Shown here one piece after another: positions 52,541 to 63,353 of a stretch of 64,000 bases of DNA (positions within the stretch are counted from its first letter, which is position 1; every line of letters starts with the position of its first letter). This DNA comes from Bacteroidota bacterium (GTDB lineage: Bacteria > Bacteroidota > Ignavibacteria > UBA10030 > SZUA-254): the NCBI GenBank assembly GCA_035524335.1, contig DATKPE010000033.1:36157-100156 (forward strand). The letters are read 5' to 3'. Below the pieces are notes generated by a model. That model made no database searches. It saw only the letters and a list, made by a program, of their open reading frames with translations, and had not been told where the DNA came from. A program made the position numbers and the translations under genes.

Positions 52541-52766
52541 CTTCAGATCCCCATTTCCATATCTTCGGATAATCCCTTTCGCTGACGGCTGAATGTCCGG
52601 ACCGCTGATCGGGCCCGGGCCCCCGGATGAATGAAACTGTCGCGATTGATGTCCCGCTCCCGCAGGCCCGGGACACGGATCCGCCTCAGCGTTCCTGTTT
52701 GGCATGGCCGGCGGGGAGGGTGCATATCCACCCCCGGAACGGCCGCTCCATGCGGAGAGGAACACC

Positions 52767-55700
52767 ATGAACCGAATTTCGCAGATCCTGATCGCCCTTT
52801 CCATCGCCGGCGCAGTCGCCGCCGGTATCATTGCCGGATTCAAACCGCCGCCTGCCGAACGCGAAGATGCGACAGGCGCACTGCAGGCGCTCGATTTCTG
52901 GACACGGGCGCGGGCCTATCCACGAAACGATATTCCCCCCGGAAAATACGCGTCCGCCGTCCGGCATGTCCGTCAGACGATGAAACGGCTCCCCCCCTCG
53001 GTGAACGGAAATTCGGTCTGGACATCGATCGGTCCGATGAATCTGTCCGGCCGTGCGCTGAGCGTGGCGGTCAACCCGCAGAACAGCAGTACGGTCTATG
53101 TCGGATCCGCGAGCGGAGGCCTCTGGCGGTCATACACTGCCGGTCTTGAGGGAGACTGGCAGCGCGTCCCGACCGGATATCCGGTCCTGGGCGTTGGCGC
53201 AATCGCGTTTGTGCCCCACGATTCCACACGTATGTATATCGGAACGGGAGAGGTCTATCAGTACCGAACCGCCCTCGGAGGGTTAATCATCCGGACAACC
53301 CGTGGAAGCTATGGAATCGGCATTCTCAAATCGATCGATGGCGGGAAAAGCTGGCAGAAATCGCTCGACTGGTCGATGGATCAGGAAGCCGGGGTCGACT
53401 GCATCCGGATCAACCCGCTCAATCCCTCCACTCTTTTGGCGGGGACGAGCGAGGGGATCCTCAAATCGACCGACGCGGGGACATCCTGGACCAACGTCCT
53501 TCCGTATCAGATGGCGGAGGATATTCTCATCAATCCGCAAGACACGACAACCGCCATTGCAGTCGTCGGAAACTTCAACAGCGATTATGCCGGGCTGTAT
53601 TATTCGTTCGATGCAGGCGACGACTGGTACAACGTGCCGACCTTCCCAGCCTTTTCGGGGAAAGTGAAGCTGGAAATGTACCAGGCCTCCCCCAACGTCG
53701 TCTATGCAAGTGTTGCAGACAGCACGACGAGCGTCAGTTCGCTCTGGCGTTCGACCAATTTCGGCGCTTCGTGGCGCGAGGTGAACGGCACCGATGTCGC
53801 CGGAGTCCAGGGGTGGTATTCACACTATGTCGCAGTGCACCCGAACGATTCTTCCCAGATCATCAGGGGAGGCATTGATATTTTCAAATCGGTGACGGGC
53901 GGATCCACATTCTTCGGCGCCGCGGGCTCGTATTCGGATCATCACGGCTTCGCCCACGATCCGAACAACCCCGACATCATTTACGACGCCAACGACGACG
54001 GACTCTACCGGTCGACCGATTTCGGGGAAACCTACACCTGGGTCAGCTACGGCATGCAGACGGGACAATTTTACAACGGATTTTCCTGCTCCTCCCAGGA
54101 TTCCCTCTTTGCCATCGGCCAGGTTCAGGATCATATCCCGGGCTATTCCTATTTCGGAAGTCAGGACTGGGGCAGAACAGCCGTCGACGAATGCGGCTGG
54201 ACCGCCGCCAATCCGCTCAACGATCATCAGCTCTACGCCGTCGACAGGAACGGCGGATCGGTATACCGGTCGACCGACCGCGGGAATTTGTTTCTTCCAC
54301 TTTACGGGGATACGGAATTCGGCGCCTGGAACACTCCTGTCGCAATCGCCCCTTCCAACCCGTCAGTCCTTTACTTTGCCAAAAATTCGATTCACAAAAG
54401 CACCGACGGCGGCACAACATGGTACAATACCGGCTCGTATGTCACGAACGACGGCGATGTCGCTATTTCCATGGCAATTGCTCCAACCAGCCCCGACACC
54501 GTTTTCATCGGCAAGGCCCCGTATACCCCCGGACATGCGCATATCTACAGGACTGTGAACGGCGGCCTGTCCTGGGTCGATGTCACAGGGACTCTTCCCG
54601 ATGCATACCCGCTTGACATCGCAATCGACCCGCATCATGCATCGGTCGTTTACGCTGCCTACGGGGGATTCTTCACGGGACATATCTTCAAATCGATCAA
54701 TTGCGGCATCAGCTGGACGGACATCTCGGGATCGCTCCCCGACATTCCCGTCACCGCGATCGCGATCGATCCGCAGAATTCCTCCTACGTCTACATCGGA
54801 ACCGACGTCGGTGTGGAAGTTTCGACCGACGCCGGCGCCAGCTGGAACGATTTTTCAGAAGGACTTCCGGAAGCCATCCTCGTCTCCGACCTCGTCGTCT
54901 CCCCGAGCAACCGTATGCTGAGGGTCGTCACCCATGGGAATGGAGTATACGAACGCCCCCTGCCGGCCGTCATTCCGTTCGTGACCCTTCAGTCACCCGC
55001 CGGAGGGGAACATTGGGATGCGGTCGACGACCACCGCATCTCCTGGGATGAAGCGGGCGCACCGCTCCTCCGGCTGGAGATCTCCACCGACGGGGGATCC
55101 GGCTGGACGCTGATTGCCGACAGCGTAAACGGTTTCACGCGCTCGTATATCTGGCATACCCCCTACCTGGTAACCGATCAGGCCGTGATGAGAATCAGCG
55201 TCGACGGAAATCTCTCCGTCCACAGCCAGACGCCGGCCCCCTTTGCCCTCTATTATCACGGGGACGCCCTGCCGGTTTCGGCCGGATGGAACATGATTTC
55301 TCTTCCGGTCAATCCGAAAGACTCGGCCGCGGCAGATCTCTTCCCCGGCGCCAGCTCCCCGCTGTTTTCCTACACCGGAGGATCCGGTTACAGCTACAGC
55401 GGAACCGCTGCTCCCGGCCCGGGGTACTGGATCCGGTACGCATCGGCGCAGACCGTACTCCTCCCGGGCGACTCACTGACGATTCAACAGATCGCGGTCA
55501 CCACCGGCTGGAATCTCATCGGATCGATCGGGACTCCGATTCCGGCCGGTTCGATCGGCTCGATCCCCCCGGGGATCATCAGCGGAAATCTCTTCACCTA
55601 CAGTTCCTCCAGCGGCTACGTCATCGCCGATTCAATTACCCCCGGAAATGCATACTGGGTGAATACCACCTCTGCAGGGACGCTGACGCTTTCGACCATA

Positions 55701-56387
55701 CCGGTCCCTGCGGCGGGACGGACACCCGATGCAGAGGGAACTTCCGCACCGACAGATACAATATTCATGACCGATGATGCCGGACGGACCGGTTACCTGC
55801 TTGTCACGGACGGAGATGCGGCATCGGAGCAGAAAGAATCGGCCCTGCCGCCCGTTCCGCCCGAGGGCGCCTTCGACATCCGGTTTGCCGGCGACAGATT
55901 CCGGGCTGGTCTCTCCACTCCGGAAAACGGCATAAAGCCGATTCCACTGAGCCTTCGCGGTATCCGTTATCCGCTCCGGGTGCGATGCGGTCATTCACCC
56001 CTGTTTCCCCTCTCGATTTTTGTGAACGGAAAGGAGCGGCTTCTTCCGGCCGCGGGTGAACTCGTCGTGGCGGAACCGGGCACCGGCATCGCACTTGGAC
56101 GGAGCAGTACCTCCGGTCTGCCGGCGGCCTTCGCGCTTCACCAGAATTATCCGAATCCCTTCAATCCGTCTACCACCGTCCGGTTTGATCTCCCGGTCCA
56201 TTCCCATGTACGGCTCGATCTTTACTCGACGCTCGGTTCGTTCCTGGAGACCGTGTTCGAAGCCGATTCCCCCGCAGGAAGCAGATCCGTCGTCTGGAAC
56301 GGGGCAGGCCGCCCGAGCGGGGTCTATTTTCTCCGGATGACCGCAGGGAATTTCACCCGGACCGAGAAAATCGTCCTTCTCCGCTAA
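52767..56387 (+). CDS. secreted BNR/Asp-box repeat beta-propeller protein with C-terminal T9SS sorting domain
   Basis: SD GGAGAGG upstream, signal peptide, and more than six SxDxGxTW repeats (STDAGTSW, STNFGASW, STDGGTTW, SINCGISW, STDAGASW...). The C-terminal ~80 aa (NYPNPFNPSTTVRFDLPVHSHVRLDLY...GVYFLRMTAGNFTRTEKIVLLR) is a type-A T9SS sorting domain. Confidence 0.75.
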   Translation: MNRISQILIALSIAGAVAAGIIAGFKPPPAEREDATGALQALDFWTRARAYPRNDIPPGKYASAVRHVRQTMKRLPPSVNGNSVWTSIGPMNLSGRALSVAVNPQNSSTVYVGSASGGLWRSYTAGLEGDWQRVPTGYPVLGVGAIAFVPHDSTRMYIGTGEVYQYRTALGGLIIRTTRGSYGIGILKSIDGGKSWQKSLDWSMDQEAGVDCIRINPLNPSTLLAGTSEGILKSTDAGTSWTNVLPYQMAEDILINPQDTTTAIAVVGNFNSDYAGLYYSFDAGDDWYNVPTFPAFSGKVKLEMYQASPNVVYASVADSTTSVSSLWRSTNFGASWREVNGTDVAGVQGWYSHYVAVHPNDSSQIIRGGIDIFKSVTGGSTFFGAAGSYSDHHGFAHDPNNPDIIYDANDDGLYRSTDFGETYTWVSYGMQTGQFYNGFSCSSQDSLFAIGQVQDHIPGYSYFGSQDWGRTAVDECGWTAANPLNDHQLYAVDRNGGSVYRSTDRGNLFLPLYGDTEFGAWNTPVAIAPSNPSVLYFAKNSIHKSTDGGTTWYNTGSYVTNDGDVAISMAIAPTSPDTVFIGKAPYTPGHAHIYRTVNGGLSWVDVTGTLPDAYPLDIAIDPHHASVVYAAYGGFFTGHIFKSINCGISWTDISGSLPDIPVTAIAIDPQNSSYVYIGTDVGVEVSTDAGASWNDFSEGLPEAILVSDLVVSPSNRMLRVVTHGNGVYERPLPAVIPFVTLQSPAGGEHWDAVDDHRISWDEAGAPLLRLEISTDGGSGWTLIADSVNGFTRSYIWHTPYLVTDQAVMRISVDGNLSVHSQTPAPFALYYHGDALPVSAGWNMISLPVNPKDSAAADLFPGASSPLFSYTGGSGYSYSGTAAPGPGYWIRYASAQTVLLPGDSLTIQQIAVTTGWNLIGSIGTPIPAGSIGSIPPGIISGNLFTYSSSSGYVIADSITPGNAYWVNTTSAGTLTLSTIPVPAAGRTPDAEGTSAPTDTIFMTDDAGRTGYLLVTDGDAASEQKESALPPVPPEGAFDIRFAGDRFRAGLSTPENGIKPIPLSLRGIRYPLRVRCGHSPLFPLSIFVNGKERLLPAAGELVVAEPGTGIALGRSSTSGLPAAFALHQNYPNPFNPSTTVRFDLPVHSHVRLDLYSTLGSFLETVFEADSPAGSRSVVWNGAGRPSGVYFLRMTAGNFTRTEKIVLLR

Positions 56388-58473: not shown

Positions 58474-59502
58474 TCAGGCGCGCGAGCGCGAGCTGGCGAT
58501 ATTGAGGCGTTTCAGCTTGTACCGGAGGGTCTGCTCGGTCATGCCGAGGAAACCGGCCGCCTTCGACTGGTTGAACCCGAATTTCTGCAGTGCCCGTTCG
58601 ATGATCCCCTTCTCGATCGCATCGAGAGACTTGTCCAGAATGAAATCCTGCCCGTTCTGGATGTTGTTGATCATCTTCACGACCTCGGTCTTTTCGTCGA
58701 CGAGTTCGGGCGGGAGCATGAACCGGCCGCCGTTGGAGAAGAGGACCGATTTATCGATGACCGCCTTCAGCTCGCGGATATTCTCCCGCCAGCTCTGGCG
58801 GACGAGGACGTCGATGGCGTTGATATCGATGACCAGTTCCCCGATGCCGATTTCGTGGCAGAGTTCGTTGGCGAAATGTTTCACGAGGAGCGGGATATCC
58901 TCGGGGCGTTCGCGGAGCGGCGGAATTTCGAGCCGTTCGAAGTCGCTCAGCTTGGTGAACAGTTCCTCGAGCAGTTTCCGTTTATCCACGAGCGACCGGG
59001 GGTCCTCCTTCAGGGTAAAGATCAGGCGGATATCGATCGGTTCGGACTGGGAACCGCCGATGCGGCTCGTGAGCCGTTCATTCAGGAAGGTGAGGATCTT
59101 CATCTGATTACGGAAGCTGGCTTCCTCGACCTCCTCGATGAGGACGGTCCCGCCGTTGGCGATTTCGAAGAGGCCCCGTTTGGTGGTATAGGGAAGTCCT
59201 TCCGCGCCGCGGTCAAATCCGAAGAGAACCGCTTCGAGCTCCTTATCATCGAGGACGGAGAGGTTGATCGACATGAACGGCGATTTCGACCCCTCGACGG
59301 CGCCGAGAGAGTAGATGTTTTTGGCGACGGCGCCCTTCCCGACGCCGGCCTCGCCGACGATGACCACGTCGTTGCGGTTTTTTGCAAGTCTGCCGATCTG
59401 TTTCAGCAGCTGCTCGACGGCCCGGCTCTTGCCGATAATCGGGTATTCCATCGATCCGCCCTTCGCTTCATCGGGTGATTTTACCTTCTTGTCTTTATCC
59501 AT
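58474..59502 (-). CDS. sigma-54-activator-family (bEBP-like) AAA+ ATPase with Fis-type HTH, lacking an N-terminal sensory/receiver domain
   Basis: Walker A VGEAGVGKGAVAKN and a Walker B-like GGTVLIEEVEEA (EE where DE is usual). The GAFTGA region reads FGFDRGAEGLPYTTKRGLFEIANGG. R-finger/sensor II region present. C-terminal HTH AAGFLGMTEQTLRYKLKRL. Start set at MDKDKK (59502). Confidence 0.7.
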   Translation of the reverse strand: MDKDKKVKSPDEAKGGSMEYPIIGKSRAVEQLLKQIGRLAKNRNDVVIVGEAGVGKGAVAKNIYSLGAVEGSKSPFMSINLSVLDDKELEAVLFGFDRGAEGLPYTTKRGLFEIANGGTVLIEEVEEASFRNQMKILTFLNERLTSRIGGSQSEPIDIRLIFTLKEDPRSLVDKRKLLEELFTKLSDFERLEIPPLRERPEDIPLLVKHFANELCHEIGIGELVIDINAIDVLVRQSWRENIRELKAVIDKSVLFSNGGRFMLPPELVDEKTEVVKMINNIQNGQDFILDKSLDAIEKGIIERALQKFGFNQSKAAGFLGMTEQTLRYKLKRLNIASSRSRA

Positions 59503-59540: not shown

Positions 59541-60668
59541 TTACTTGCCCTGTGAATTCTGGAACAGGCGCCCGTTGAAAAGCTTGAAATTGAAGAACCG
59601 CTCCAGGATGAGGTTGTCGACCCAATCCCGCCAGCGGCTGATCGTCTGCGGGTTGCTCGCCAGTTCCAGCTCGTAGAATTCGCCCTGCACCGAGGTAATG
59701 AACCGCAGACGGAGGACGAAGAACCAGACGATGAAGAACTCGACGAAAATCGTGACGTACTGGGAGACGGCGAACAGATCGGCGAATGAGGAAAATTCGA
59801 CGCTGTGGCTGAACCCCCAGTTATGGAGGATCTCCATCGACGAGAGGAGGAGGAACAGGAACATGATCTTGTCGATATACGCCCCCTGGGGCGGATCCTT
59901 CTTGAACTGGTAAAGGAAAAACAGCAGTATGAAGACGATGAAGAAGACGTTCATGTAGACGATGCTCATGTTCATCGGCTTCCAGAGCAGGATGATGTAG
60001 TTGTTGCCCGCAAGGTACGGCATCAGATATTCGATACGGCGGATATTCTGATCCGGGTAAAGATCGCCGACGGCGCGTCCGTCTTCCCACGACTGCAGTT
60101 TGACGGATCCGGCAAGCTGGATGGCCGAAGGGGTTTCCTTCGCGGGATCGACCGCCTGGTAGAGCGTCTTGAACTGCTTGATGTCCTGCGTCGAGTAGAG
60201 ATACAGCGGATCATGAAAATACGGCTGGAAGATCATCCAGCTGACGATGACCGAAAGGGCGATTGCGGCGAGATATTTCTGATAGATCCTCAGCTCGCGG
60301 AATATCTGATCGATCACGATGTAGCAGATGGCGAGCGACATGAAAACCTGGAATCCGATCAGGGTATACTGGTGCAGAATGTGGGTGGCGAATTTGTTCT
60401 CGGTGAAGATCGACACGCCGACGAAATCGAAGAAATAATGGCTGACCGAGACGGTGAACAGGAAGATAAAATTCAGGAAGATGAATTTATTTTTCGGATT
60501 CGGCTCACTGCGGTAAATCAAAACGGACAGAATGAGAAGCAGAATCTGAATAGCCCTGTTGAAAACGCCTTCGAGGTCGATCGGGTGGTGTGGAAACAGC
60601 ACCAGGGCCACGCAATAAACTGCGTGAAAAACAAGTAGAAAGAAAAATGCTTTGACAAGATTTTTCAT
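59541..60668 (-). CDS. hypothetical polytopic membrane protein (about 8 TM), first gene of the operon with the bEBP-like regulator
   Basis: 375 aa with hydrophobic helices throughout. Begins directly at an AT-rich promoter region and ends 38 nt upstream of the regulator gene. Its antisense ORF (59805..60638) is the acidic mirror translation. Confidence 0.55.
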   Translation of the reverse strand: MKNLVKAFFFLLVFHAVYCVALVLFPHHPIDLEGVFNRAIQILLLILSVLIYRSEPNPKNKFIFLNFIFLFTVSVSHYFFDFVGVSIFTENKFATHILHQYTLIGFQVFMSLAICYIVIDQIFRELRIYQKYLAAIALSVIVSWMIFQPYFHDPLYLYSTQDIKQFKTLYQAVDPAKETPSAIQLAGSVKLQSWEDGRAVGDLYPDQNIRRIEYLMPYLAGNNYIILLWKPMNMSIVYMNVFFIVFILLFFLYQFKKDPPQGAYIDKIMFLFLLLSSMEILHNWGFSHSVEFSSFADLFAVSQYVTIFVEFFIVWFFVLRLRFITSVQGEFYELELASNPQTISRWRDWVDNLILERFFNFKLFNGRLFQNSQGK

Positions 60669-60954
60669 AAGTAAAGACCGGGTACGAAGTCCGATCCCTC
60701 GTTTTGTTTAAATTTATCGCTTTTTTGAACAAATGTCAATAGCATTCGCAATTTTTTTTCTATATGCTCAAATCTGTGATTCGCAACACGCCATAATATT
60801 CGTGATATTTTTTCAGAATAAAATAGCAAAATTCTTGCGAATTTTCACATAATATCGTAACTTGTCCTTGGAGTTTTTCCCCTCATTACCCCTTTAATGC
60901 GAATATACAAAAATATTTTTCATAATCAATTAATTAAATCCGAGGAGAGTTACC
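60669..60954. promoter_or_regulatory. AT-rich divergent intergenic region with repeated octamer ATTCGCAA / TTGCGAAT
   Basis: 286 bp, visibly AT-rich. ATTCGCAA at 60744-60751 and 60779-60786, inverted TTGCGAAT at 60835-60842, and a 7/8 inverted copy ATGCGAAT at 60897-60904. SD-like GGAGAG precedes the downstream small ORF. Confidence 0.45.
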
Positions 60955-61197
60955 ATGACTGCCATCACACGTCGTAATGCAAAGCGGATCGGATCCCTTC
61001 TGATCGCTTTACTGATCGTTCTTGTGACCAATATCGCCATCTCCCTGGCCGATAACGCACGCACGCTCGATCCGAACAATCCGATCTACGGTTCGCCCCG
61101 TCCCAAGACGCTCGATCCGAATAATCCGATCTATGGCTCGCCCCGTCCCAAGACGCTCGATCCGAACAATCCGATCTACGGTTCACCGCGCCCGTAA
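60955..61197 (+). CDS. small (80 aa) signal-peptide/membrane-anchor protein with three tandem copies of TLDPNNPIYGSPRP separated by Lys
   Basis: GGAGAG 7 nt upstream of ATG. N-region RRNAKR, hydrophobic IGSLLIALLIVLVTNIAISLA, then DNAR-TLDPNNPIYGSPRP-K-TLDPNNPIYGSPRP-K-TLDPNNPIYGSPRP-stop. All inter-repeat nucleotide differences are synonymous. Confidence 0.55.
   Translation: MTAITRRNAKRIGSLLIALLIVLVTNIAISLADNARTLDPNNPIYGSPRPKTLDPNNPIYGSPRPKTLDPNNPIYGSPRP
61063..61197 (+). repeat. 3 x 45-bp tandem coding repeat inside the small ORF
   Basis: Copies at 61063-61107, 61108-61152 and 61153-61197. They differ only at third codon positions: aac/aat, tac/tat, ggt/ggc, tcg/tca, ccc/ccg, cgt/cgc, ccc/ccg. 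Confidence 0.9.
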
Positions 61198-61245
61198 GGC
61201 ACGGCCCGCGGCATTTGCCGCGCGTTCGGTAACTCCATAATTGAT

Positions 61246-61287
61246 ACACCCCGCCTGCGGTCCGCCGCGGACGGGGTGTTTTTTTTC
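61246..61287 (+). terminator. strong Rho-independent terminator downstream of the repeat-peptide ORF
   Basis: ACACCCCG - loop containing the nested TCCGC/GCGGA pair - CGGGGTGT, followed by T8 (TTTTTTTT). Confidence 0.7.
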
Positions 61288-61345
61288 CCGGGACTCCGAT
61301 TACCATTTCTCGTGATTTTTTTTTATTTTTCCCTGAAATACCTCC

Positions 61346-62347
61346 ATGGAGCCCGTCTACCCATCAGATCCGACCACTTTCAGCTGGCAGGGACAACCAC
61401 CCCCGCCTCCACGGCCATGGAAATCGTACCTCTTCCATGCGTCGCTCTTCCTTCTGACGTTCATCACCACAACACTCGCGGGCGTCCTATGGCTCCTGAA
61501 AGACCCGTTTGAACTGTCCAATTTCCCTGCGGGATTTCCCTATTCCCTCAGTCTCCTGGCAATCCTCACGGCCCACGAATTCGGGCATTACTTTGCGGCG
61601 CGACGCTACCATATTCCGACCACCCTCCCCTACTTCATCCCGATGCCGCCGTTTCTCATCAACCTTTTCGGCACCATGGGGGCGGTGATCAGGATCAGGG
61701 GGGCGATCGGAACCAGAAAACAGCTCTTCGACATCGGCGCCGCCGGACCGATCGCGGGTCTTATCGTTACCCTGGGTGTCCTCGCCCTCGGCATGGCGAC
61801 GCTTCCCCCGATCAGCTATCTGTACGGAATACATCCCGAATATATCGGCCTTTCTGCAATCCCCAACGGAGGGCTGACCTTCGGCTCCTCTCTCTTCTTC
61901 CGCGGGTTTCTCCGCCTGTTCGCACACGGCCGGTTTATTCCCCCCATGAATGAAATTTACCATTATCCCTATCTCTGCGTCGGCTGGTTCGGCCTGTTCA
62001 TCACCGCGATGAACCTGATCCCCGTCGGCCAGCTGGATGGCGGCCATATCCTCTATTCCATGGTCGGACGCCGGCAGGGGCTGATCGCGAAAATCTGCTT
62101 CGGCATACTCATCCTGATCGGCCTCGTGGCGTTCATTCCCGCATTCGGTTCCCATATTCAGCTGGGGACCCTCGGCTGGCTCATTTTCGCCGTCATCCTG
62201 TTTTTCGTCATCAAGCTCAATCACCCCGAAATCCACGATCCGGAACCTCTCGACTCATCGCGAACCTTCCTCGGATGGATTCTCATGGCCCTCTTCATCC
62301 TCATTTTCACCCCGGTGCCGTTCTATGAAATCTCCCCGGCACCTTGA
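61346..62347 (+). CDS. site-2 protease family (peptidase M50) intramembrane zinc metalloprotease, no PDZ domain
   Basis: HExxH inside a TM helix (LAILTAHEFGHYFAARRY) and the second S2P motif NLIPVGQLDGGHIL. Multiple TM helices. Confidence 0.8.
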   Translation: MEPVYPSDPTTFSWQGQPPPPPRPWKSYLFHASLFLLTFITTTLAGVLWLLKDPFELSNFPAGFPYSLSLLAILTAHEFGHYFAARRYHIPTTLPYFIPMPPFLINLFGTMGAVIRIRGAIGTRKQLFDIGAAGPIAGLIVTLGVLALGMATLPPISYLYGIHPEYIGLSAIPNGGLTFGSSLFFRGFLRLFAHGRFIPPMNEIYHYPYLCVGWFGLFITAMNLIPVGQLDGGHILYSMVGRRQGLIAKICFGILILIGLVAFIPAFGSHIQLGTLGWLIFAVILFFVIKLNHPEIHDPEPLDSSRTFLGWILMALFILIFTPVPFYEISPAP

Positions 62348-62471: not shown

Positions 62472-63353
62472 ATGCGTCGCACCATTTCCACCGTTCTGAT
62501 CCCCCGGGTGTTCCGGACGATATCCCCATACCGCCGGATTCTTCCTGTCGTCATACTTGTGGTCGCGGGACTGGCAGGCTGCCGGCGCGAGTATTCCGGT
62601 ACGCTCGACCCGCCCCTCACCGCGCCGTATCTGTATCAGGCGCAGATCGGGGTCTCGCTCGTCGATCTCGATACCTCCTCCGCATCCGTCGTAAAACAGA
62701 TTTCGCCCGGGACCTACGAGATCACCGATTCTCTTTCCGCCGTGGTGCTCGATCCGGTGAGCGGAGACGATATCACCTCCTGCACCTACAGCGTCACGTC
62801 GCCGGGCATCTCGACGCCTTTTCTCACAGGGAACCTGAACCGGATCTCGGTGTCGTCCAATCAGGCGAATTTCAGCACGAAGTTTGCCTTCCTCGTCCGG
62901 CGCGACCAGATAGGTCCGTACATTATCGAAATCGACGCCTCAGGGCAGGCAGGGTATGTCGCGAATGCCCGACGGGTCACCCTCTCTATTATCAGAAACG
63001 ACGCCCGGCCGGTCATCTCGAATCTCCTCGCACCCGACACCCTGGTCCGGCCGCAATCCGGTTCCCGGATGGTCCGTCTCGCCATTTCGGCCTCCGATTC
63101 GGACGGCCTCGGCGACATCGTCAAAGTTTTCTTCCGGAGCATCAACTCCACCTCCCCCGATTTTGAACAACCGATGTTCGACGACGGGAATCTGGCGGTG
63201 GACGGTGATTCCGTTGCGGGCGACGGCCGCTATGCCAGACTTCTGCCGCTCGATTCAACGGCCACGGCGGGAATCAAGGAATTTCGCTTTTTCGCGCGCG
63301 ACAAAGCGGGAGCGGTGAGCGATTCAATCGTCCATTATATCGTCATCCAATGA
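62472..63353 (+). CDS. hypothetical lipoprotein (beta-rich)
   Basis: Lipobox VVAGLAGC after a hydrophobic stretch. Ser/Thr/Val-rich beta-strand-like composition. Its stop overlaps the start of the next gene (ATGA). Confidence 0.5.
   Translation: MRRTISTVLIPRVFRTISPYRRILPVVILVVAGLAGCRREYSGTLDPPLTAPYLYQAQIGVSLVDLDTSSASVVKQISPGTYEITDSLSAVVLDPVSGDDITSCTYSVTSPGISTPFLTGNLNRISVSSNQANFSTKFAFLVRRDQIGPYIIEIDASGQAGYVANARRVTLSIIRNDARPVISNLLAPDTLVRPQSGSRMVRLAISASDSDGLGDIVKVFFRSINSTSPDFEQPMFDDGNLAVDGDSVAGDGRYARLLPLDSTATAGIKEFRFFARDKAGAVSDSIVHYIVIQ

Follow-up and report, generated by a model that had tools for sequence, protein, structure and literature searches.

The subject of this analysis is a small gene at positions 60955-61197, on the plus strand, of a 64,000-nucleotide stretch of Bacteroidota DNA (contig DATKPE010000033.1), the whole of which is referred to below as the window. 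Its product is a hydrophobic leader followed by three identical copies of a proline-rich 14-aa unit, and it stands divergent to the genes for a polytopic membrane protein, here called MEMB, and for an AAA+ regulator, with which it forms a conserved module in related genomes. The parts of the gene and the signals around it are as follows.

60942..60949, plus strand: Shine-Dalgarno sequence GAGGAGAG, 5 nt 5' of the ATG; AGGAG-like sites are kept in relatives (alignment A5)
60955..61197, plus strand: small open reading frame (ORF), 80 aa and stop codon, ATG start, encoding a putative exported multi-copy proline-rich peptide protein
60955..61050, plus strand: leader, aa 1-32, divided by means of the family logo into MTAITRRNAKR (basic n-region), IGSLLIALLIVLV (h-region) and TNIAISLA (c-region)
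61051..61062, plus strand: spacer DNAR, aa 33-36, read from the sequence; a basic residue stands immediately 5' of unit 1
61063..61104, plus strand: unit 1, TLDPNNPIYGSPRP, then K at 61105-61107, from Tandem Repeats Finder (TRF) and unit comparison
61108..61149, plus strand: unit 2, TLDPNNPIYGSPRP, then K at 61150-61152; missing in strain L001
61153..61194, plus strand: unit 3, TLDPNNPIYGSPRP, read from the sequence; the protein ends in PRP, with the stop codon at 61195-61197
61246..61287, plus strand: intrinsic terminator, a 14-bp G+C-rich hairpin (61246-61279) followed by U8, beginning 49 nt past the stop codon

The small gene and its repeat units

Translation of 60955-61197 gives the layout MTAITRRNAKRIGSLLIALLIVLVTNIAISLADNAR-(TLDPNNPIYGSPRP-K)x2-TLDPNNPIYGSPRP-stop, and TRF reports a period of 45 nt, 2.7 copies and 92% matches at the repeat array. 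The unit has a net charge of 0, or +1 counting K, and by the -3/-1 rule a signal peptidase I (SPase I) site is predicted after the SLA of the leader. The intergenic region upstream comprises 286 nt with 32% G+C, against 59% for the whole window, and a hairpin-T terminator lies 3' of the small gene in every locus inspected. The small ORF is a genuine stand-alone, monocistronic coding gene. A preliminary description of this DNA, made without database searches, had already noted the ORF with its leader and three identical 14-aa units, the Shine-Dalgarno sequence, the AT-rich upstream region and the terminator 49 nt downstream that makes it a stand-alone unit, and in all of this it was accurate.

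The gene is apparently unannotated, its exact 80-aa product matching no called gene in the public gene collection. The flanking M50 protease and MEMB are on record, being 100% identical to proteins of the NCBI entry 'MAG TPA: Bacteroidota bacterium' (MAG, metagenome-assembled genome); that the gene between them went uncalled shows what small-ORF annotation can miss.

Between the window's three DNA copies there are 10 variable positions, every one of them synonymous in the plus-strand frame, with 0 changes at ~65 non-synonymous sites. When adjacent units are compared in 47 proteins of the family described below, 769 synonymous and 360 non-synonymous nucleotide differences are counted (proportions per site, pS 0.51 and pN 0.08), the non-synonymous ones clustering in few family members, and the 25 proteins with identical adjacent units display 341 synonymous differences and 0 non-synonymous ones. 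The copies are therefore not recent duplicates; they are old in DNA and identical as peptide. These counts show that the repeat units are under strong purifying selection. The preliminary description had named freely varying repeats in homologues as a refutation of its reading; 25 proteins are without a single non-synonymous difference, although units do diverge in four members (L113, L115, L146 and L089). An antisense ORF at 60965..61306 was rejected as a real gene, its repeats not being kept identical, and apart from this shadow no other ORF in the window has a comparable amino-acid periodicity.

The sister species L163, the closest other species, has 78% nucleotide identity (MEMB 83%, M50 78%). 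All of its four units are amino-acid identical to those of the window, its leader carries five substitutions, and its spacer reads DNAK rather than DNAR, an R to K replacement before unit 1. Among assemblies of the window's own species, with flanks 99.2-99.8% identical, there are two copies in L001 (a-c), three in the window (a-b-c) and four in L083 (a-b-a-c), where an additional copy of unit 1 is placed after unit 2. Copy-number change is the whole-unit, in-register gain or loss of repeats, and while unit sequence differs between species, copy number is polymorphic within that of the window. The variation across genomes that the preliminary description proposed to look for is thus present, with 1-8 copies in the family and 2, 3 or 4 among near-identical strains.

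A family of repeat proteins in Ignavibacteria-related genomes

A word-indexed protein search with the 80-aa protein returned a single match, a variant of 65 aa with 2 copies whose strain is 99% identical in its DNA, and an exhaustive HMMER search yielded a single genuine relative, P0002 (97 aa, four copies of TTNPNNPLYGSPRP split by K, with a terminator and an M50 gene downstream), the remaining matches being low-complexity noise. A scan of GTDB with leader-derived patterns gave no match. The family was reached via the neighbour genes, by scanning 80 GTDB loci obtained through M50 and 80 metagenome loci obtained through MEMB. This yielded 57 distinct homologues from metagenomes and from MAGs labelled Ignavibacteriales, Ignavibacteriota or Bacteroidota. 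All of them measure 54-194 aa and have one layout, so that the ORF is not a piece cut from some larger surface protein, the outcome that the preliminary description had named as a refutation of its reading.

The window protein and 8 other family members matched no model of Pfam or NCBIfam, and an apparent LRV match was set aside as a repeat artefact in which no single stretch passes alone. Nothing in Rfam comes to or near the gathering score in 60500-61500, and no description of the small-protein family or of the three-gene module came up in searches of the published literature. The family is undescribed, as the preliminary description had supposed for the motif, and its members all belong to an Ignavibacteria-related clade within Bacteroidota.

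The family leader is of fixed length, with [RK]-x-R, a 14-residue hydrophobic stretch and T-N-[IF]-A-I-S-[YF]-A, and without indels over 22 aa. Numbered backwards from the boundary with the variable part (n=57), its positions are occupied as follows.

Position -22: R/K in 57/57
Position -20: R in 38/57
Position -15: T in 42/57
Position -8: T in 36/57
Position -7: N in 55/57
Position -5: A in 52/57
Position -4: I in 53/57
Position -3: S in 50/57
Position -1: A in 46/57

Under a rule-based reading, -3 is S/A/T and -1 is A/S/G/T in 55/57 leaders each. Judged by its sequence, the leader has the n-h-c layout expected of a Sec/SPase I signal and conforms to the -3/-1 rule, and it is far more conserved than usual signal peptides. 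Three other signals were considered and rejected. The window leader has T-R-R-N-A-K, reminiscent of a Tat signal, but the family consensus is K-R-[FILT]-R-S without an obligatory RR, and the h-region is strongly hydrophobic (I/L/V); a lipoprotein signal would need a Cys, which the small protein lacks; and the Bacteroidetes O-glycosylation sequon D-(S/T)-(A/I/L/V/M/T) does not apply to units that carry D-S-P or D-T-P.

In the variable part a proline-rich unit of 11-19 aa, specific to the species, stands in 1-8 tandem copies, examples being SNVPILPDSPRP, SGVATHPDTPRP, SGMPIIPDSPKP, SVLSQPKPPIP, AGVGVLSGNTPRP, FAADAVIFQPAPRPSKT and LTSGDGAPLPPPPPPDVNS. Whole-family identity is 0.46 for the leader and 0.30 for the core, with the terminal P[RK]P left out. 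Most units contain D or E, most terminate in P-[RK]-P, and 40/57 proteins end precisely at P[RK]P, without a linker. In ~15 members unit 1 starts at +1 of the predicted cut, with no linker residue there (ISYA/SGVATHPDTPRP-K-SGVA..., the slash marking the cut), and the spacer before unit 1, where present, ends in K or R. The start at +1, the spacer ending in K or R and the P[RK]P end point to a defined unit phase.

In the window protein, and in most members, every unit has a K or R before it. Elsewhere the linkers are different (Q in L092, H in L104, DL/DM in L148, D/E in L153, NALA/NTLA in L122, RT in L100), and invariant cores stand beside variable linkers, TER/SER/ADR in L102 and STVTLA/NALA/NTLA/NTLLLA in L122. 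With Q, H, D, E, DL, RT, TER, NALA/NTLLLA or nothing between units, monobasic cleavage is no general rule; processing at basic residues is plausible, yet not for every member. The early interpretation of the protein as a multi-copy precursor therefore holds for the exported-type leader and the identical units, but not for the basic residue before each unit, which is not a family-wide trait.

Within a single protein, L100, units 3 and 4 are fused without a linker (…DSPRP-SSVPL…) whereas the first two junctions are RT, so that even the presence of a linker varies inside one chain.

A three-gene module on a conserved backbone

The arrangement of the locus was determined by tblastn of the window proteins against every locus obtained. 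Loci with the small gene have a single order: the 293-aa gene, M50, the small gene, then divergent MEMB and AAA+ regulator, and a convergent GT2 gene. The neighbours with which the argument is concerned are these.

59541..60668, minus strand: MEMB, a receptor-like membrane protein of 375 aa with 8 predicted transmembrane (TM) helices, a periplasmic loop at aa ~152-222 and a conserved cytoplasmic tail
58474..59499, minus strand: AAA+/HTH_8 regulator of the bacterial enhancer-binding protein (bEBP) family (Pfam), without an N-terminal sensor domain and with GAFTGA replaced by GAEGLP
61346..62347, plus strand: M50 (site-2 protease family) gene (Pfam), a conserved downstream neighbour and backbone gene

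The small gene is present, along with the regulator, in 6/6 GTDB loci holding MEMB and in 53/53 metagenome loci with >500 nt upstream of MEMB, and M50 loci without the small gene are also without MEMB and the regulator, carrying GT2, sometimes a 272-aa gene, M50 and the 293-aa gene. The small gene, MEMB and the regulator are either all present or all absent; they are one unit, vertically inherited at one site.

The M50 gene has a different history. Relatives lacking the three-gene module have it too, likewise flanked by GT2 and the 293-aa lipoprotein-like gene, and in a neighbour-joining tree of M50 the module-bearing loci make up essentially one clade, with few exceptions. Its adjacency to the small gene therefore reflects shared history and offers no independent evidence of function, and a role of M50 is unsupported. 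The preliminary description had correctly named the neighbours, an M50 protease and a divergent pair formed by a membrane protein and a regulator; the emphasis it gave to M50 needs revising, since relatives devoid of the small gene have M50 in this place as well.

The conserved neighbourhood (~60 loci, the L163 gene table, Pfam) holds only ECH, GT2, the AAA+ regulator, MEMB, M50 and the lipoprotein-like gene. It contains no radical-SAM, YcaO, ATP-grasp, Lan-type or peptidase gene, in agreement with the early remark that no modification enzyme is nearby, and no Kex2/subtilisin-like endoprotease or trimming peptidase lies within the conserved locus. Searches of the module proteins with Pfam and NCBIfam revealed no HisKA, HATPase_c, Response_reg or TPR domain.

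In relatives without the module (L007, L008, L012, L013, L016, L020, L024, L027 and others) a conserved gene of ~272 aa is found ~800 nt upstream of M50. Its product has a signal peptide and is outer-membrane-protein-like, and the gene sits at the module's position, directly upstream of M50 and often overlapping it. The 293-aa backbone gene, at 62472-63353 on the plus strand, has an N-terminus resembling that of a lipoprotein (…VVAGLAGC), matches 'choice-of-anchor X' weakly and occurs in nearly all related loci, with the module present or absent.

The membrane protein, the regulator and their divergent promoters

The 454 homologues of MEMB are without exception annotated 'hypothetical', and no Pfam domain is found in any of them. 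An AlphaFold2 model built from 44 sequences (predicted local distance difference test, pLDDT, 84.6; predicted TM-score, pTM, 0.81) places five TM helices first, then a periplasmic domain of a helix and a beta-hairpin (aa ~152-222), three further TM helices and a conserved cytoplasmic tail. We call this topology receptor-like, and do not claim homology by the term.

The regulator consists of Sigma54_activat, AAA_lid and HTH_8 domains (Pfam). It is 61-85% identical across family loci, far more conserved than both partner genes, and PADLOC found only generic RtcR/PspF-type AAA+ matches for it. In alignment with NifA, GAFTGA is opposite GAEGLP of the window regulator, and five orthologues (L003, L004, L005, L014, L022) have lost the motif as well, reading G[AV]EG[LI][PS]. 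A search for GG-N10-GC sites on both strands of 42 intergenic regions gave none with more than 6/12 consensus positions, and none at all in the window region. A regulator without GAFTGA, together with the absence of a -24/-12 promoter, means that this is no sigma-54 circuit. The preliminary description had spoken of a bEBP-like regulator, which is right as regards the Sigma54_activat/HTH_8 family; with GAFTGA lost, what the name implies about sigma-54 does not follow.

The intergenic region has the following elements.

60711..60739, minus strand: putative sigma-70-type promoter of the MEMB/regulator operon, TTGACA-17-TAAATT, 10/12 consensus matches
60775..60816, no strand assigned: two operator-like inverted repeats (alignment A5), TGTGATTCGCAACAC at 60775-60789 and CGTGATATTTTTTCAG at 60801-60816, the latter reading CGTGAAAAATTTTCACG in relatives
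60835..60863, plus strand: putative sigma-70-type promoter of the small gene, with -35 TTGCGA (60835-60840), a 17-nt spacer and -10 TAACTT (60858-60863)

The TTG and TAnnTT columns of the small-gene promoter are conserved in the 10 related intergenic regions of alignment A5 and match the consensus; in the same alignment TTGTCAA and AATATA are invariant columns of the promoter of the MEMB/regulator operon. TTGAC[ACT]-N16-18-TAnn[AT]T is found on the small-gene strand in 24/42 family loci. Both inverted repeats, of the type GTGA-N6/7-(T)CAC, sit between the divergent promoters. A candidate weak -24/-12 site, TAGCAA-N5-TTGC at 60824-60838, was rejected after the alignment showed TTGCGA to be the conserved -35 hexamer.

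The first inverted repeat (TGTGA-N6-ACACG) resembles a CRP/FNR-type site. In a subgroup comprising L014, L022, L110, L113, L116, L120-L131 and others, a sigma-70-like promoter lies 200-285 nt upstream of the start codon, which implies a long 5' untranslated region; in the subgroup of the window the figure is ~85 nt.

A candidate peptide ligand for the membrane protein and regulator

We place at roughly 45% the probability that the small protein is an exported peptide ligand, or ligand precursor, for the MEMB-regulator pair. We infer export, leader cleavage, any processing between units, ligand-receptor pairing and a regulatory loop, which would operate in the following way. The leader would carry the protein across the inner membrane and be removed after ..IS[YFL]A. 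The proline-rich array would then serve as the cognate extracytoplasmic ligand of MEMB, either as single cut peptides or as a multivalent chain, and the cytoplasmic tail of MEMB would control the AAA+/HTH regulator encoded in the same operon, itself without sensor domain or GAFTGA. The regulator would act on the sigma-70-type divergent promoters via the conserved inverted repeats, and copy number would set ligand dose or valency, shifting fast by in-register unit gain or loss. Whether these parts also amount to a self-contained new type of peptide signalling, composed of a Sec-exported 1-8-copy peptide, a GPCR-like 8-TM receptor and a sensor-less, sigma-54-independent AAA+ factor, is more doubtful.

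Ribosomal peptide signals with dedicated receptors are, to our knowledge, established in Gram-positives and eukaryotes, almost unknown in diderms and unknown in Bacteroidota/Ignavibacteria. If the ligand-receptor interpretation is true, the module would be a new signalling architecture, would give a function to three families of unknown function and would be a natural example of dose tuning by tandem copy number; it would represent ribosomal-peptide communication, or an autocrine circuit, in diderm Bacteroidota/Ignavibacteria, built of parts unrelated to known quorum-sensing machinery. If it is wrong, the locus would still be a clean case of selection keeping peptide repeats identical and of a bEBP that has departed from sigma-54.

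Several observations weigh against the ligand interpretation. Single-copy members exist (L101, L139/L140/L159), other members have diverged copies (the four named above), and the heterogeneous linkers (Q, H, D, E or none) give no single obvious cleavage rule. In a diderm cell a periplasmic peptide would have no obvious route outward. Foldseek against the PDB ranked GPCRs first for MEMB, but not significantly (E >= 0.08, TM 0.25-0.4), and the resemblance of the model to GPCRs may be generic to helical bundles. Unit sequence does not covary with the MEMB periplasmic loop in a partial Mantel test with the TM bundle controlled (partial r -0.27). Finally, a leader as unusually conserved as this, polar at -15, -8, -7 and -3, would suit an uncleaved membrane anchor as well.

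Alternative explanations

This last possibility, taken further, is that the leader is an uncleaved type II signal anchor whose polar face (T-15, T-8, N-7, S-3) packs on the MEMB bundle. The proline-rich tail would then be a tethered periplasmic arm, acting as ruler, tethered ligand or docking site, with no release of peptide, a view that the existence of single-copy members favours. A 22-aa segment of fixed length with an invariant Asn and polar residues in approximately heptad spacing is unusual for a disposable signal peptide, and distances between leaders are correlated with those between MEMB TM bundles (r 0.56; partial r 0.46 with the loop controlled), although shared phylogeny can explain the covariation. 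We nevertheless consider such an anchor unlikely. A textbook -3/-1 motif, S-x-A, is present in ~80% of members, the boundary between conserved and variable parts falls exactly at this motif, many members start their first repeat at +1, and the h-region proper has just 10-13 residues.

Somewhat less likely still is a secreted bacteriocin-like or otherwise inhibitory peptide, for which MEMB would be the immunity or export factor while the regulator controlled production. A conserved leader joined to a hypervariable core (identity 0.46 vs 0.30) is typical of precursors of bacteriocins and of peptides made by the ribosome and modified after translation (RiPPs), and a polytopic membrane protein always adjoins the small gene. 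PRP-type motifs recur in insect proline-rich antimicrobial peptides, one of which, apidaecin, also comes from a multi-copy precursor, and the units share these motifs. They are near neutral, however (TLDPNNPIYGSPRP 0, or +1 with K), and neither cationic nor amphipathic; the conserved module has no transporter or peptidase-ABC gene; PADLOC returned no match for MEMB or the small protein; and MEMB, through its translational linkage to a transcription regulator, looks more like a sensor than an immunity protein. An activity of the apidaecin/oncocin/drosocin type in particular was rejected: the PRP motif is present, but the charge is wrong.

That the leader or anchor is cut in the membrane by the adjacent M50, freeing the peptide array or a signal-peptide-derived product, is improbable. 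The proposal has precedent, as Eep processes enterococcal pheromones from signal peptides, and site-2 protease substrates need a helix-destabilising residue. In every family locus that is long enough, M50 is the next gene downstream on the same strand, and the small protein, in a predicted N-in orientation, has an invariant Asn (-7) in the hydrophobic segment that could destabilise the helix. Against this, M50, GT2 and the 293-aa gene, as a backbone, also occur where the small gene is missing, the near-monophyly of module-bearing M50s makes the adjacency inherited and not independently recurrent, a strong terminator separates the two genes, and M50 has no PDZ or CBS domain or other module-specific feature visible to Pfam.

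Still more improbable is a RiPP precursor with modifying enzymes encoded elsewhere (for proline hydroxylation, glycosylation or cyclisation of the cores, for example), for although a conserved leader, multiple identical cores and variable linkers would suit it and a GT2 glycosyltransferase adjoins the module, GT2 is a backbone gene found without the module, the conserved neighbourhood has none of the enzyme genes listed above, and cores behind a Sec-type leader would exit the cytoplasm unfolded, possibly co-translationally, with little chance for cytoplasmic tailoring.

Comparison with known systems

In layout the small protein resembles eukaryotic polyproteins (yeast MFalpha1 and the TRH, FMRFamide and honeybee apidaecin precursors), in which a secretion signal is followed by tandem identical peptides, mostly with a basic residue between copies, in variable copy number and with the last copy ending the protein. 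It differs from them in being bacterial, in its single-residue linkers that are not always basic, in the lack of sequence homology and in having no linked Kex2/furin-like, Ste13-like or carboxypeptidase gene. With multi-core RiPP precursors (cyanobactin PatE, microviridins/graspetides, prochlorosin-type) it shares a conserved leader, several hypervariable cores and variable linkers; its leader, however, is Sec-type and not a cytoplasmic recognition sequence, and no modifying enzyme, leader peptidase or transporter is linked to it.

As a gene cassette, the module is comparable to those of Gram-positives (Agr, ComCDE, Rgg/SHP, RNPP-Phr) in having a small exported-type precursor beside, and divergent from, a sensor and a regulator, in its species-specific peptides and in the M50 gene nearby, the functional counterpart being Eep for SHP and the enterococcal pheromones. 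Unlike these cassettes, it contains no histidine kinase, response regulator or TPR/RNPP receptor, the candidate sensor being an 8-TM protein in which no known domain is recognised, and the regulator an AAA+ protein that lacks GAFTGA; the host is diderm, and the M50 gene belongs to the backbone.

The regulator has parallels of its own. TyrR, R. capsulatus NtrC and VpsR are non-canonical bEBPs that act without sigma-54. PexR of Myxococcus is another (PMC12754779). Like these four proteins, the regulator combines an AAA+ Sigma54_activat domain with a Fis-type helix-turn-helix, lacks GAFTGA and has sigma-70-like promoters, and no -24/-12 promoter, in its putative target region; unlike them, it is entirely devoid of an N-terminal sensory or receiver domain and is always co-operonic with the 8-TM MEMB, presumably its input. 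In the PspF-PspA-PspBC system, too, an AAA+ regulator without a sensory domain is encoded divergently to its target and is controlled in trans by membrane-associated partners. PspF, however, keeps GAFTGA and drives a sigma-54 promoter, whereas the module has no PspA, PspB or PspC homologues and its putative target is a secreted repeat peptide.

Other observations

A 1227-aa BNR/Sortilin-like repeat protein, encoded at 52704-56387 on the plus strand, carries a C-terminal sorting domain of the type IX secretion system (T9SS) (...NYPNPFNPSTTVRFDLP...), and a similar protein begins near the window end, from 63208 onward. The T9SS sorting domain in the window, together with Por_Secre_tail in the L163 gene table, marks the host as a T9SS-bearing member of Bacteroidota/Ignavibacteria. 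The HMMER search also brought up P0009, an unrelated 117-aa protein from outside the window in which a signal peptide is followed by five copies of YELPNFNTHDPTSPL, another array of near-identical tandem peptides.

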